A stretch of 53,782 bases of DNA from an uncultured Bacilli bacterium (GCA_947588895.1 CANQBF010000002.1:1-53782), one strand, 5' to 3'. Counted from the stretch's first letter, positions 31,428-34,448 are shown. The notes: generated from the letters alone by a model not told the origin. Numbers and translations: made by a program.

Positions 31428-31456
31428 TTGACCTTTTTGATATTAGTAACTATAAT
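31428..31456 (+). promoter_or_regulatory. Promoter of the MAT-like / AlaRS-like / S51 operon
   Basis: TTGACC (31428-33), 17 nt, TATAAT (31451-56). Confidence 0.6.
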
Positions 31457-31498
31457 TTATTATAATCAAAAAAATTGTAGAAAGAAAAGGTGATGATA

Positions 31499-32752
31499 AT
31501 GCAAACGTTTATTTATACAAATAAAAAAGCTGATATAAATAATCAAGAATTTGAAGTTGTTGAAACGAAAGGAAAAGGACATCCCGATAATATTTGTGAT
31601 ACGTTAGCAGAAAAAATATCTATAGAATACTCTAAATATTGTATTGAACATTATGGTGTAATATTAAGACATATGATAGACAAGTTATCAGTATTAGGTG
31701 GTGGTTCAAGAGTTCATTTTAAAAACTCAGAAATGATAGCGCCGATTAGAGTTTTAATTAATGGCAGATTTACAGATAGGTATAAAGATGAAAAAATTGA
31801 TTACATGAAAATAGTCTCAAAAGTGATAAAACAATATTTTAAAGAATTATTTCCATTGTTAGATATTGAAAAATATTTATTGATTATTGATAATACTCAT
31901 CATAATGAGGGACCAGGAGTTGTTTATGATTCAAATGAAACTTCAAAAAATGAAAGGGTAAAATTTTTCGAGGTAACTTCAAAAGAGGACATTGCAAGAC
32001 ATAATAATCATTTTAGATGCAATGATACATCTACTACAGTTAGTTACTATCCAATGAGTAATTTAGAATTATTAGTTTTAAAAATCGAACAAACTTTAAA
32101 TTCAATGTCTTATAAAAAGAAGAATCCATGGGTTGGAAGTGATATAAAAGTCATGGGATTAAGAAAAAAAGATAAAGTTGAAATTACGAGTTGTATTCCT
32201 CTTATATCAAAATATGTGGATAATTTAGAGGATTATCAAGATAAACTTTCTAGATTAAAGTCTGATATAATGTCTATAGCTTTAAAATATTTTGATGAAG
32301 ATAAGATAACTATTTGTTTAAATACTAGAGATGATTATTCCAAAAATGACCTTTATTTAACAGCAATAGGAAGTGCTATTGAAAGTGGTGATGAAGGAGC
32401 AGTTGGAAGGGGTAATAGGTCAAGAGGAGTTATTCCATTTAGTAGAAATTTTAGTATGGAAGCATCTTGTGGTAAAAATCCTGTTTATCATACTGGAAAA
32501 TTATTTACTGCAATTGGAGATAATATTAGTAAAAAGATATATGAAAAATATAAAATTGAAAATGTTGTATATTGTACTTCAAAAATGGGAGATAAAATTT
32601 GTGAACCTTGGAACATTAGTGTTGAATTGAATAAAGAAGTTTCTGAAAAAATAAAAAAAGATATTGACAATTTAGTAAAAAATGAAATTAAAAATCATGA
32701 AAAAGTTACTGATGATTTAATAAATGGTAAAATAAAACTAAATAGTTATTAG
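31499..32752 (+). CDS. Archaeal-type S-adenosylmethionine synthetase (MAT, PF01941-like) homologue
   Basis: VETKGKGHPDNICD, NDTSTTVSYYP, GSDIKVMG, SAIESGDEGAVGRGNR, SMEASCGKNPVYHTGK parallel archaeal MAT blocks (ERKG.GHPDSICD, NDTSFGVGYAP, GEDIKVMG, GDDGSVGRGNR, SMEAASGKNPVNHVGK). AAGGTGA RBS. Confidence 0.75.
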   Translation: MQTFIYTNKKADINNQEFEVVETKGKGHPDNICDTLAEKISIEYSKYCIEHYGVILRHMIDKLSVLGGGSRVHFKNSEMIAPIRVLINGRFTDRYKDEKIDYMKIVSKVIKQYFKELFPLLDIEKYLLIIDNTHHNEGPGVVYDSNETSKNERVKFFEVTSKEDIARHNNHFRCNDTSTTVSYYPMSNLELLVLKIEQTLNSMSYKKKNPWVGSDIKVMGLRKKDKVEITSCIPLISKYVDNLEDYQDKLSRLKSDIMSIALKYFDEDKITICLNTRDDYSKNDLYLTAIGSAIESGDEGAVGRGNRSRGVIPFSRNFSMEASCGKNPVYHTGKLFTAIGDNISKKIYEKYKIENVVYCTSKMGDKICEPWNISVELNKEVSEKIKKDIDNLVKNEIKNHEKVTDDLINGKIKLNSY

Positions 32753-32760
32753 GAGTTGTT

Positions 32761-33750
32761 ATGGATAAAAAAATTTTAGATAAAAATGAATTAGAAAAGT
32801 ATTTTTTAGAGAAAGAGTATAATTGTTTAAAACCCCATTCAATAGTAAATAATAATGATACCATTTTTGTAAGTGCAGGTATTCAACCAATTTTAAAAGA
32901 TTATTGTGAATATAAAATAAATGAGTGTGAAAAAATTTATATTGCTCAACCAGTTATTAGAACCCAATTTGCTAATTCTGTATCTGAAGGTTCATCCATT
33001 GCTTTTGTTAACTTAACAACATCCGGTTTTAATATTACAGAAGAAAAGCACAATATATTAGTTCAAGATTTTTTTGAACTTTTTTCTATATTAAACATGA
33101 AAAAAGAAGAAATAGTAAAAAAAGAAGATGAATATGAAGATATTTGGGGAAGTATACAATTGTCCGGTAAAAGAACTTTTTATTATTATAAAAATATTGA
33201 AATCGGAGATACAACTTTTTTTACTAAAATATTAAAAGGTGATAAAAAAATTGGAATTGAGACAATGAGTGATGTTGGTTTTGGCTTAGAAAGAATTAGA
33301 TGGCTTATAAATGGTGGCTCGTATTTTAATTTATATTCTGATTCTGCTAAAATAGATAATTATATAAAAGCATATTTATCAGTACTTTCTTTATTAAGAG
33401 TTAATGATATAAAACCTTCAAATAAAAATTGTGGATATCGTGCTCGTTTATTTTCAAAAAAGTTAGTAAATTTACTAAAAGCTAGACCTTTAAGTTTTGA
33501 GCTACAAAGCTATTTAATAGAAGCTTTGAAATATTGGAAAAATTGGCAAGATGTAAATCACGAAATTGAAACCAATATTATAGAGCAAGAGTATATAAGA
33601 AATTGTAATCGATATATTATTGATATTTTATTAAGCGAAGGATATGATAATTTAAGTGGCATTAATATTAATGTTTCATGGGAAGAATTTCAAGAAAAGT
33701 TGTTAGCATCAAACGTTGAACCAGAAAAGATAAAAAAATTATTAAGATAG
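32761..33750 (+). CDS. Stand-alone alanyl-tRNA-synthetase catalytic-core paralogue (class IIc aaRS-like)
   Basis: IFVSAGIQPILKD (cf FTNAGMNQFKD), AQPVIRT (cf SQRCVRA), SDVGFGLERIRWLING (cf VDTGMGLERIAAVLQ), PSNKNCGYRARL (cf PSNENRGYVLRR). Only 329 aa; no editing or C-Ala domains. Confidence 0.65.
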   Translation: MDKKILDKNELEKYFLEKEYNCLKPHSIVNNNDTIFVSAGIQPILKDYCEYKINECEKIYIAQPVIRTQFANSVSEGSSIAFVNLTTSGFNITEEKHNILVQDFFELFSILNMKKEEIVKKEDEYEDIWGSIQLSGKRTFYYYKNIEIGDTTFFTKILKGDKKIGIETMSDVGFGLERIRWLINGGSYFNLYSDSAKIDNYIKAYLSVLSLLRVNDIKPSNKNCGYRARLFSKKLVNLLKARPLSFELQSYLIEALKYWKNWQDVNHEIETNIIEQEYIRNCNRYIIDILLSEGYDNLSGININVSWEEFQEKLLASNVEPEKIKKLLR

Positions 33751-33758
33751 AGGAAATT

Positions 33759-34448
33759 ATGAAATTATTTTTATGTGGTGGAGGTTCTGGTAAACAAATA
33801 TTAAATGCTTTAGAAAAGTTTTCAAAATTAGTGGAAAAAGATAAACCAATTTTGTATATACCGCTTGCTATGGATGTTGAAAATTATGATAGTTGTTATA
33901 ATTGGTTTTCAAAAGAAATAACTTATATGAATTTAAATAAATTTGAAATGGTCAATTCAAGTTTAGAATTATCTAAAAAGAATCTTTTTAATTATTCTGC
34001 TATATTTATTGGAGGAGGAAATACTTATAAATTACTTTCTAATCTAAAAGAATATGATAACTATAAAAAAATTAAAGATTTTTTAGAAAAAGATGGAATA
34101 ATTTTTGGAGGAAGTGCAGGAGCTATTATTTTTGGTAAAAATATTGATAGTTGCTTGTTATCAGATACCAATAATGTTGGATTAATTGATACAAAAGGGT
34201 TTGATTGTTTAGGCGGTATATCTTTCTTATGCCATTTAAATAATAAAAATTTGAAAAACAATAAGAAATATTTAGAAAAATATTCTAAAAATAACAAATT
34301 AATTTATTTAAGAGAAGATACAACTATATATATAAATGATAATAAAGTAATTTTAATAGATAATCCAAATTATATTTATTTTAATAAAGGTAAATATTCA
34401 AAACATAATGCTGCAAATTTAAAAAATGATATAAATAATAATAAATAA
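33759..34448 (+). CDS. Peptidase S51 (PepE/cyanophycinase-like) serine hydrolase
   Basis: FLCGGGSG, IFIGGGNTYKLL, nucleophile motif GGSAGAII, His in FLCHLN ~40 aa later. Confidence 0.75.
   Translation: MKLFLCGGGSGKQILNALEKFSKLVEKDKPILYIPLAMDVENYDSCYNWFSKEITYMNLNKFEMVNSSLELSKKNLFNYSAIFIGGGNTYKLLSNLKEYDNYKKIKDFLEKDGIIFGGSAGAIIFGKNIDSCLLSDTNNVGLIDTKGFDCLGGISFLCHLNNKNLKNNKKYLEKYSKNNKLIYLREDTTIYINDNKVILIDNPNYIYFNKGKYSKHNAANLKNDINNNK

Follow-up and report, generated by a model that had tools for sequence, protein, structure and literature searches.

What reaction requires a homologue of methionine adenosyltransferase (MAT), a truncated relative of alanyl-tRNA synthetase (AlaRS) and a hydrolase of peptidase family S51, encoded as neighbours in a single operon? 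The question is raised by positions 31,428–34,448 of a 53,782-nucleotide stretch of DNA from an uncultured Bacilli bacterium (GCA_947588895.1, CANQBF010000002.1:1-53782), the whole of which is referred to here as the window. Three open reading frames (ORFs), g1, g2 and g3, occupy this region:

31490–32752, + strand: g1, ORF of 420 amino acids counted from GTG
32761–33750, + strand: g2, ORF of 329 amino acids
33759–34448, + strand: g3, ORF of 229 amino acids

A preliminary description of this DNA had reported that the three ORFs lie on one strand with 8-nucleotide (nt) gaps and that the ribosome-binding sites of g2 and g3 overlap the preceding stop codons, and both the ORF map of the window and the sequence itself bear this out. 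The g1/g2 and g2/g3 spacings are 8 nt each, the Shine-Dalgarno sequence of g2 (AGGAG, 32751–55) overlaps the TAG stop of g1, and that of g3 (GAGGAA, 33750–55) overlaps the TAG stop of g2, so that translational coupling of the three genes is plausible. The true start of g1 is probably the ATG at 31499, giving a protein of 417 amino acids, because an AAGGTG Shine-Dalgarno sequence lies 6 nt upstream of it and because 417 amino acids is the length of nearly all Bacilli-type homologues. The families to which the preliminary description assigned the three genes are likewise upheld by the comparisons given below, and we show that the trio is conserved over a wide range of small-genome bacteria and archaea, where it is best explained as one dedicated enzymatic module, not three housekeeping genes.

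Conservation of the three-gene module

Related loci were taken from species-representative genomes, metagenomes and contigs encoding particular proteins, and their ORFs were searched with hidden Markov models for g1, g2 and g3; approximately 100 loci were fetched, of which 65 are non-redundant (individual loci are cited below by their L numbers). The neighbourhood proves to be conserved, with the trio kept in about 100 loci and with g1 and g3 beside g2 in essentially every locus that has enough flanking sequence, down to 27% identity in g2. In 29 of the non-redundant loci the genes are in tandem (g1>g2>g3>), and in 17 g2 and g3 are followed by a convergent g1; most of those remaining are truncated by contig ends. 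On the Bacilli side the hosts are gut and rumen metagenome-assembled genomes (MAGs) labelled Bacilli, Tenericutes or Mollicutes (Candidatus Aphodocola, Mycoplasma sp. CAG:776), and the other hosts are Candidatus Doudnabacteria, Paceibacterota, Berkelbacteria, Parcubacteria, an uncultured archaeon and a Nanoarchaeia MAG; the trio is kept together in reduced-genome gut Bacilli, in bacteria of the candidate phyla radiation (CPR) and in DPANN archaea.

The genes are also joined physically. g2 and g3 usually overlap in CPR loci, and a g2–S51 fusion (P0234) is present on two independent contigs, each time preceded by a radical S-adenosylmethionine (SAM) gene and g1. At L081:2602-4308 a single 568-amino-acid ORF fuses Peptidase_S51 (residues 7–201) to a group 1 glycosyltransferase (GT1, residues 381–507), which is a single observation. 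We found no description of a MAT, an AlaRS-like protein and an S51 enzyme in combination in the literature, and the earlier statement that no described pathway or defence system combines these three families agrees with the literature, with PADLOC and with NCBIfam.

The three proteins

g1 matches PF01941 at 341.8 bits (cut-off 27) over profile positions 7–395 of 395, and it matches the solved archaeal MATs in the PDB with E ~1e-64. With the enzymes of M. jannaschii, P. furiosus and S. solfataricus (PDB 7p82, 6s81, 4hpv) it shares full-length homology, about 350 bits for the family profile, and all of the catalytic motifs: GHPD, NDTS, D218/K220, SGDEGxVGRGNR and GKNPxYHxGK are invariant among 43 relatives of g1, drawn from widely differing hosts, and align with the PDB MATs. 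There are nonetheless several departures from those archaeal enzymes. g1 falls below all five NCBIfam MAT equivalog cut-offs (the best score is 312.8 bits against 481), it is linked to g2, it has a MetK alongside it in at least two Bacilli lineages, and its family carries an insertion of 16–20 amino acids just ahead of NDTS, with P142, G143, R156 and F160 invariant, that is missing from the M. jannaschii, P. furiosus and S. solfataricus proteins. We place g1 in the archaeal MAT family (PF01941) as a divergent protein, outside the NCBIfam equivalogs.

The co-resident MetK proteins are of particular interest for the role of g1. L001 encodes a complete bacterial-type MetK at a distance of 4 kb from its trio, and L042 encodes a homologue, with 40% identity to that protein, some 2 kb away from its own; because MetK is also present there, g1 would be a second, dedicated MAT at least in the lineages of L001 and L042.

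g2 gives no Pfam match above cut-off, with no PF01411 match, and scores 17.8 bits against TIGR03683 (cut-off 744.7). However, a profile of 50 members of the g2 family matches archaeal AlaRS structures with E=1.5e-18 (2zze, 3wqy alignment), and the alignment spans motifs 2 and 3 together with the 'PSN..GY..R' helix of the tRNA-recognition domain. The AlphaFold2 model (predicted local distance difference test score 95, predicted template-modelling score 0.92) leads to the same family: the first 24 matches in Foldseek are to AlaRS, either as catalytic fragments or as full chains, with template-modelling (TM) scores of 0.59–0.67 and a best E of 1.7e-13 (3wqy, TM 0.64–0.67), the rank-3 match being an integrative model that contains AlaRS, and GlyRS alpha subunits come after AlaRS in the ranking. 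As modelled, g2 is a stand-alone AlaRS aminoacylation core with a helical tRNA-recognition domain, and is not itself an AlaRS; its 329 amino acids end after the helical domain, and it has neither an editing domain nor a C-Ala domain.

Residues that bind ATP and the amino acid in AlaRS are conserved in g2. Among 61 relatives Q63, R67 (motif 2), F82, G149, D171, G173-F-G-x-E177-R178 (motif 3), W259 and E277 are invariant, and 15 columns in all are invariant across the 61 sequences, a pattern indicative of strong purifying selection; G149 and D150 are specific to the g2 family. R67 and R178 are the class II ATP-binding arginines and F82 is the adenine-stacking residue, all kept in 61/61, as is D171, the equivalent of the alpha-amino-binding D235 of E. 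coli AlaRS. In the E. coli enzyme D235 holds the alpha-amino group and also the hydroxyl of serine, and a V-to-A change at the position that discriminates alanine from serine raises serine activation (PMC12143591). In the g2 family this discriminator position (V214 in E. coli) is Thr, Ala or Ser in 44 of the 61 sequences.

The helical part of g2 retains some of the features of a tRNA-binding domain. It is basic, with a median isoelectric point (pI) of 9.0 against 5.8 for the catalytic part, a basic GY(R)xRxxSK motif is conserved, and N221 of the 'PSN' motif (present in 52/61 sequences) aligns with A. fulgidus N359, the AlaRS asparagine which we take, from the A. fulgidus complex, to read the G3:U70 base pair. 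The equivalent of E. coli D400, the second reader of G3:U70, is not conserved.

The g2 family comprises 381 clusters at 50% identity; at 90% identity there are 158 clusters of the Bacilli type and at least 200 more in the Patescibacteria branch. All members named by their sources are labelled 'hypothetical protein', and neither Pfam nor NCBIfam models the family. g2 founds a large AlaRS-paralogue family that is wholly unannotated; to our knowledge, AlaRS has long been believed to have few catalytic-core paralogues. A canonical bacterial AlaRS is encoded on the same contig as a g2 relative in L061, and g2 is therefore predicted not to be the alanine-charging enzyme, at least in that lineage. 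The preliminary description had suggested a check for canonical metK and alaS genes besides the trio, and in relatives both are found, MetK in L001 and L042 and AlaRS in L061; together with the 15 invariant columns they speak against g2 as a decayed alaS or g1 as the sole metK, and that reading was rejected. Within the 53.8-kb window itself there is no metK, alaS, serS or rel.

g3 matches PF03575 at 81.4 bits (cut-off 23.9) and carries a GGGNT motif and the GGSAGA nucleophile elbow. Among 54 relatives S119 and H159 of the catalytic triad are invariant and E186 is at least 90% conserved. The closest PDB structure is Lmo0363 (3l4e), followed by PepE, and the protein lies below the equivalog cut-offs for PepE (58.3 bits against 156) and cyanophycinase (24.7 against 126.6). 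We classify it as a putative S51 serine hydrolase of the class I glutamine-amidotransferase-like fold that is neither a PepE nor a cyanophycinase equivalog. As the fold is shared, some relatives of g3 also exceed the gathering threshold of GATase_3 (in L029, 33 bits where 27 are required).

Genes that recur beside the trio

Clustering of the ORFs lying within 8 kb of g2 revealed several recurrent neighbours, among them seryl-tRNA synthetase (SerRS), which is no more than 300 nt away from the trio in 14 of the 65 non-redundant loci and in at least five arrangements. Its identity is confirmed by Pfam (Seryl_tRNA_N plus tRNA-synt_2b). Of the 29 loci with all three genes and flanks of at least 1.4 kb on either side, 9 have SerRS directly adjacent. 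Within one Patescibacteria clade SerRS is found upstream of g2 or, on either strand, beyond g1, and always adjacent. Given that the gene is single-copy and that these genomes hold about a thousand genes, we estimate that such adjacency is far above chance. Genes for tRNA-Ser lie near the trio in L001, L022, L050 and L094; a dedicated tRNA beside the module was looked for and not found, the tRNA genes present being scattered, with tRNA-Ser over-represented.

Other neighbours are restricted to fewer loci. Immediately ahead of g1 there is a Rel/RSH gene in five Bacilli loci and, in three loci, a gene for an inositol-3-phosphate synthase that scores 436 bits with the mycothiol INO1 model; a radical SAM gene precedes g1 in L053 and L112/L113. 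On the g3 side, GT1 follows immediately in six loci (4 of the 29 fully flanked loci), and a Cof-type HAD phosphatase follows in three. The PDB matches of the GT1 neighbour are weak (a tetrahydrobiopterin glucosyltransferase, E=2.5e-6) and give no indication of the acceptor. No exporter, precursor peptide, ThiF-like enzyme or mobility gene is recurrent among the neighbours of the 65 non-redundant loci.

Individual loci contain further genes. The genes immediately preceding g1 in the Nanoarchaeia locus (L029:5577-7953) encode a CCA-adding-enzyme-like protein with a PolyA_pol head domain and a 2H phosphoesterase/Acb1-like protein. The trio of L001 has ahead of it (4332–6717) an HTH_3 gene and the gene for a truncated Rel of 477 amino acids with HD_4 and TGS domains, and PIG-L, tRNA-Ser(tga) and a Shedu-type SduA_C gene lie after it (10438–13060); in L006 an Abi_2 gene (475–1404) is upstream. 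The CPR-like contigs with the g2–S51 fusion (L112:14817-16977, L113:12876-15036) carry an AsnA-like truncated class II aminoacyl-tRNA synthetase (aaRS) of 373 amino acids, with 164 bits to the asparagine synthetase A model, followed immediately by a Peptidase_S66 gene (LdcA/MccF family), a second pair of an aaRS paralogue and a serine peptidase.

Composition and descent

The preliminary description regarded the trio as an inserted accessory cassette, a view that is not sustained. In G+C content and skew the trio does not differ from its flanks, which speaks against a recent insertion. Within clades g1 diverges at the rate of SerRS (61–85% identity for g1, 62–90% for SerRS), with g2 and g3 diverging faster; between the Bacilli and the Patescibacteria clade g1 is 47–53% identical and SerRS 32–37%, and the higher value for g1 would fit either tighter selection on g1 or an ancient acquisition of the module by Bacilli. 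Moreover, the pair of rlmB-like and sigH-like genes upstream of the trio (window 29425–30709) is also present in a distant Bacilli relative (L020:5624-6915; 46% and 28% identity); this is the sole flanking synteny that the window shares with any fetched locus, the others being flanked differently.

Scans of g1, g2 and g3 gave no match to PADLOC-DB v2 at E<=1 and no significant PHROG match. Searches of 2.9 million viral contigs produced two weak g2 relatives only, neither with the trio. Composition, evolutionary rate and the absence of PADLOC and PHROG matches argue against a recently inserted cassette, a defence system and a typical secreted-antibiotic cluster. The two viral relatives, on IMG/VR contigs of 197 kb (L110:8761-9657) and 134 kb (L111:9977-10870), are AlaRS-core-like proteins of 297–298 amino acids with 85 bits to the g2 profile, and there is no g1 or g3 near either gene.

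A proposed role for the trio

We tentatively favor an interpretation in which g1 makes SAM or an analogue. With the help of ATP, g2 would couple a small amino acid (probably serine) either to what g1 makes or to an acceptor resembling tRNA, and g3 would cleave the bond. This interpretation is built on the observed folds, intact catalytic residues, operon structure, conserved linkage, fusions and SerRS association, and we infer from these the substrates, the type of bond and the physiological role as follows.

g1 would be an active adenosyltransferase making SAM or a close sulfonium analogue specifically for the module. Because it is retained beside MetK and has a conserved insertion, hand-over to g2 or an unusual substrate is suggested, and the inserted loop may serve that hand-over or the accommodation of a bulkier substrate. 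Derived from AlaRS, g2 would have kept ATP binding and acyl-adenylate formation, since the ATP-binding arginines and the amino-group aspartate are invariant, and would act as a ligase between the g1 product and a small amino acid; serine comes first among the candidates, because of the SerRS and tRNA-Ser association and the Thr, Ala or Ser at the discriminator position, with alanine or glycine next. The bond could be an N-aminoacyl (dipeptidyl) linkage or a ribose 3'-O-ester, the adenosine of SAM standing in for A76 of a tRNA, and the basic helical domain of g2 may serve to hold the acceptor stem of a tRNA, either as donor or as scaffold. g3 would then cleave the aminoacyl bond for turnover or proofreading, a role that can be likened to the synthetase/amidase pair of glutathionylspermidine metabolism or to the aminoacylation/editing pair of AlaRS.

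In more general terms, the trio with SerRS as a frequent fourth partner may represent an unrecognised and ancient branch of SAM/aminoacyl metabolism, in which the ligase would act either on a sulfonium nucleoside of the SAM type, by aminoacylating it, or on a tRNA-like acceptor, by charging it with an amino acid derived from SAM, and the S51 enzyme would control the product; we put this forward with reserve, as a possibility. If it is correct, the module would yield a new compound (a metabolite, a cofactor or an intermediate linked to tRNA) that is important for ultra-small CPR and DPANN cells and was later passed to gut Bacilli. An aminoacylated SAM or a new tRNA-linked species as the product would bring a new class of SAM conjugate beside SAM-AMP and a new function of aaRS paralogues. 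Conserved genes of small genomes tend to be important, and these may point to a chemistry linking SAM and aminoacyl activation that is not yet described. With three genes in about 3 kb the module is small enough to be tested directly by heterologous expression, which would make a part of the CPR and DPANN 'dark matter' tractable.

Several observations weigh against this interpretation. We found no description of aminoacyl-SAM compounds in the literature, and the retained tRNA-recognition domain, with the PSN asparagine and a basic helical part (pI 9.0), fits a tRNA substrate better than a small-molecule acceptor. In CPR and DPANN g1 could simply be the resident MAT. SerRS, Rel and other aaRSs are translation genes, and their linkage to the trio may be mere co-regulation with housekeeping functions, while the glycosyltransferase, inositol-phosphate synthase and HAD neighbours of some lineages hint at a sugar-containing product for which the model has no explanation. 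Finally, the three steps are not strictly obligatory, because g3 is missing from L027 and L067/L068, and g1 is missing within the flank of L028 and L080.

Comparison with known systems and alternative explanations

The trio would belong with ligase modules based on aaRS paralogues, in a form undescribed so far. AsnA, HisZ, MshC, GluQRS and EpmA are truncated aaRS cores that reuse adenylate chemistry outside canonical aminoacyl-tRNA synthesis, as g2 is proposed to do; we know of none among them that is derived from AlaRS, or that is paired with a MAT homologue or an S51 hydrolase.

The general idea in the preliminary description of an aminoacyl or adenosyl conjugate handled by an S51 hydrolase has real precedents in AcmF (PMC12945691) and MccG (PMC9239234). 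AcmF, of the ascamycin pathway in Streptomyces sp. 80H647, is a truncated AlaRS-like enzyme that aminoacylates an adenosine derivative, with AcmD supplying Ala-tRNA and AcmE removing the alanine (PMC12945691). An aaRS, a truncated AlaRS-like enzyme and a hydrolase are the same logical parts list as the trio plus SerRS, and both AcmF and g2 are truncated to the aminoacylation and tRNA-recognition domains. However, AcmF has lost most of the ATP- and alanine-binding residues and depends on Ala-tRNA, whereas g2 keeps all of them and so is not of the AcmF type. The Acm hydrolase has an alpha/beta-hydrolase fold and g3 is an S51 protein; the Acm nucleoside is a sulfamate from a large actinomycete gene cluster and the trio has a MAT homologue; and the hosts of the trio, unlike the Streptomyces host of Acm, are CPR, DPANN and reduced Bacilli with vertical inheritance. 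The S51 peptidases of the MccG type hydrolyse the carboxamide bond of aminoacyl-nucleotides, and the family is thus not confined to Asp-X dipeptides (PMC9239234). g3 has the fold and a Ser-His-acid triad in common with MccG and PepE, but in this comparison the third triad residue is Glu in g3 and Asp in clade V S51 enzymes, and there are no mcc genes nearby; the MccB/ThiF-like adenylyltransferase, precursor peptide and exporter of a microcin C-like cluster are not among the recurrent neighbours of the 65 non-redundant loci.

The alternative that survives best centres on tRNA, and we regard it as credible, though doubtful. Here g2 would be a minimal non-canonical aaRS, or an aminoacyl-tRNA-dependent transferase, acting on an acceptor stem, g3 would be a deacylase in trans or cis that replaces the editing domain, and g1 would supply SAM or a SAM-derived amino acid, or be co-regulated. 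The preliminary description had offered a tRNA-related role as its second option, and this has gained support from the SerRS, tRNA-Ser and Rel neighbours and the basic tRNA-recognition domain. In g2 the helical domain with its PSN (52/61) and GY(R)xRxxSK motifs and high pI (9.0, against 5.8) is kept and the ATP motifs are intact, and in the g2–S51 fusion the hydrolase occupies the position of the AlaRS editing domain. To the neighbours already named can be added Trp/TyrRS, MetRS, CysRS, the CCA-adding enzyme and the TGS domain of Rel, and the evolutionary rate is housekeeping-like. Truncated aaRS paralogues are known to aminoacylate a tRNA base (GluQRS) and EF-P (EpmA), and AcmF uses Ala-tRNA (PMC12945691). 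What this explanation leaves aside is why g2 should keep a dedicated MAT paralogue even in Bacilli with MetK; in addition, no dedicated tRNA gene is consistently adjacent, the D400 equivalent that would be the second reader of G3:U70 is not conserved, and g3 is missing in some loci.

We consider unlikely a second alternative, in which the product of the trio is an antimetabolite resembling an aminoacyl-adenylate, such as an inhibitor of SerRS; g3 would then be a hydrolase for self-immunity or maturation, and the SerRS gene alongside would encode a resistant copy of the target. In the classic case a resistant target is recognised by its aaRS gene beside the biosynthetic genes, as in albomycin, agrocin and SB-203208. 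The S51 MccG proteins are immunity hydrolases for aminoacyl-nucleotide antibiotics (PMC9239234), and the ascamycin pathway pairs an AlaRS-like enzyme with a hydrolase (PMC12945691). However, no exporter, precursor peptide or ThiF/MccB-like gene is recurrent among the neighbours, a second copy of SerRS is unlikely in the very small CPR and DPANN genomes that host the module, the adjacent SerRS diverges as a housekeeping gene in step with g1, and the module is without a compositional or mobility signal. The fusion of the synthetase to the hydrolase in one lineage also fits poorly with a hydrolase that destroys the product, and the suggestion in the preliminary description of an antimetabolite with self-immunity is, for a secreted product, not supported on these counts.

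Less favourable still is the view that the trio is an amidotransferase or ligase for a small molecule containing sugar or inositol, with g2 adenylating a carboxylate and a GATase-like g3 delivering ammonia or transferring the acyl group onto a glycoside provided by GT1, inositol-3-phosphate synthase and the HAD phosphatase; we judge this quite improbable. The analogy is with MshC and AsnA/GatD; MshC, a CysRS paralogue, and AsnA, an AsnRS paralogue, are precedents, and consistent with it are the GATase_3 scores of g3 relatives (L029, 33 against 27 bits), the S51–GT1 fusion and the GT1 genes directly after g3 in six loci, the inositol-3-phosphate synthase before g1 and the Cof-type HAD phosphatase after g3 (three loci each), PIG-L in L001 and the AsnA-like gene in L112. 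Yet such neighbours occur in a minority of loci (4/29 for GT1), the nucleophile of g3 is Ser whereas glutaminases use Cys, the role of g1 is unexplained and a tRNA-recognition domain would be needless.

We give rather little credence to a regulatory complex in which g2, possibly with g3, serves the MAT g1 as a non-catalytic or sensor subunit and tunes SAM synthesis to amino-acid or tRNA charging status, as the HisRS paralogue HisZ regulates HisG. The constant adjacency of g1 and g2 and the conserved surface insertion of g1 would suit such a complex, and the Rel and aaRS neighbours suggest a tie to translational status, but conservation of R67, R178, D171 and motif 3 of g2 and of the g3 triad over very long distances exceeds the need of ligand sensing. 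An anti-phage defence or other mobile accessory system, as might be supposed from two loci in which a Shedu (SduA_C) or an Abi_2 gene lies no more than a few kb away and from the use of SAM conjugates such as SAM-AMP in CRISPR signalling, is highly improbable: the lack of PADLOC and significant PHROG matches for all three proteins and the two weak, trio-less viral relatives speak against a defence system, and G+C content at background, vertical divergence at the SerRS rate and the presence of the module in minimal CPR and DPANN genomes point the same way.

Control signals and downstream genes

The region around the operon is AT-rich (22–27% G+C, and 23% for the region of the promoter matches), and three sequence features precede g1:

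31334–31360, + strand: A-run, 7-bp hairpin and T-run (fold of -9.1 kcal/mol, z=-2.85 against shuffled sequences)
31428–31456, + strand: sigma-70-like promoter, TTGACC-17-TATAAT, 11 of 12 positions matching
31437–31466, + strand: second, overlapping promoter match, TTGATA-18-TATAAT

The first promoter had been described as the operon's own, and the match is real; it is weak evidence of a promoter because such matches are frequent in AT-rich DNA, with 49 found in this region against 35.7 expected. The hairpin had been read as a terminator that insulates the trio. It folds more stably than shuffled sequences, but it contains just 2 G-C pairs and was not called by a consensus terminator scan; it is probably the intrinsic terminator of the upstream gene (30756–31334), insulating the trio. 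No terminator-like structure was found downstream of g3. Riboswitch or T-box control was considered and rejected, there being no Rfam family at gathering score anywhere in the window and a 5' untranslated region of about 35 nt, and small precursor ORFs within the operon were rejected since the 8-nt gaps leave no space for them.

Downstream of the trio there are three + strand ORFs of 367, 299 and 95 amino acids (window 34610–36912), the first of which gave no match in a Pfam scan. Ahead of them, at 34552–34580, lies a TTTACA-17-TATAAT match with an extended -10 TG.

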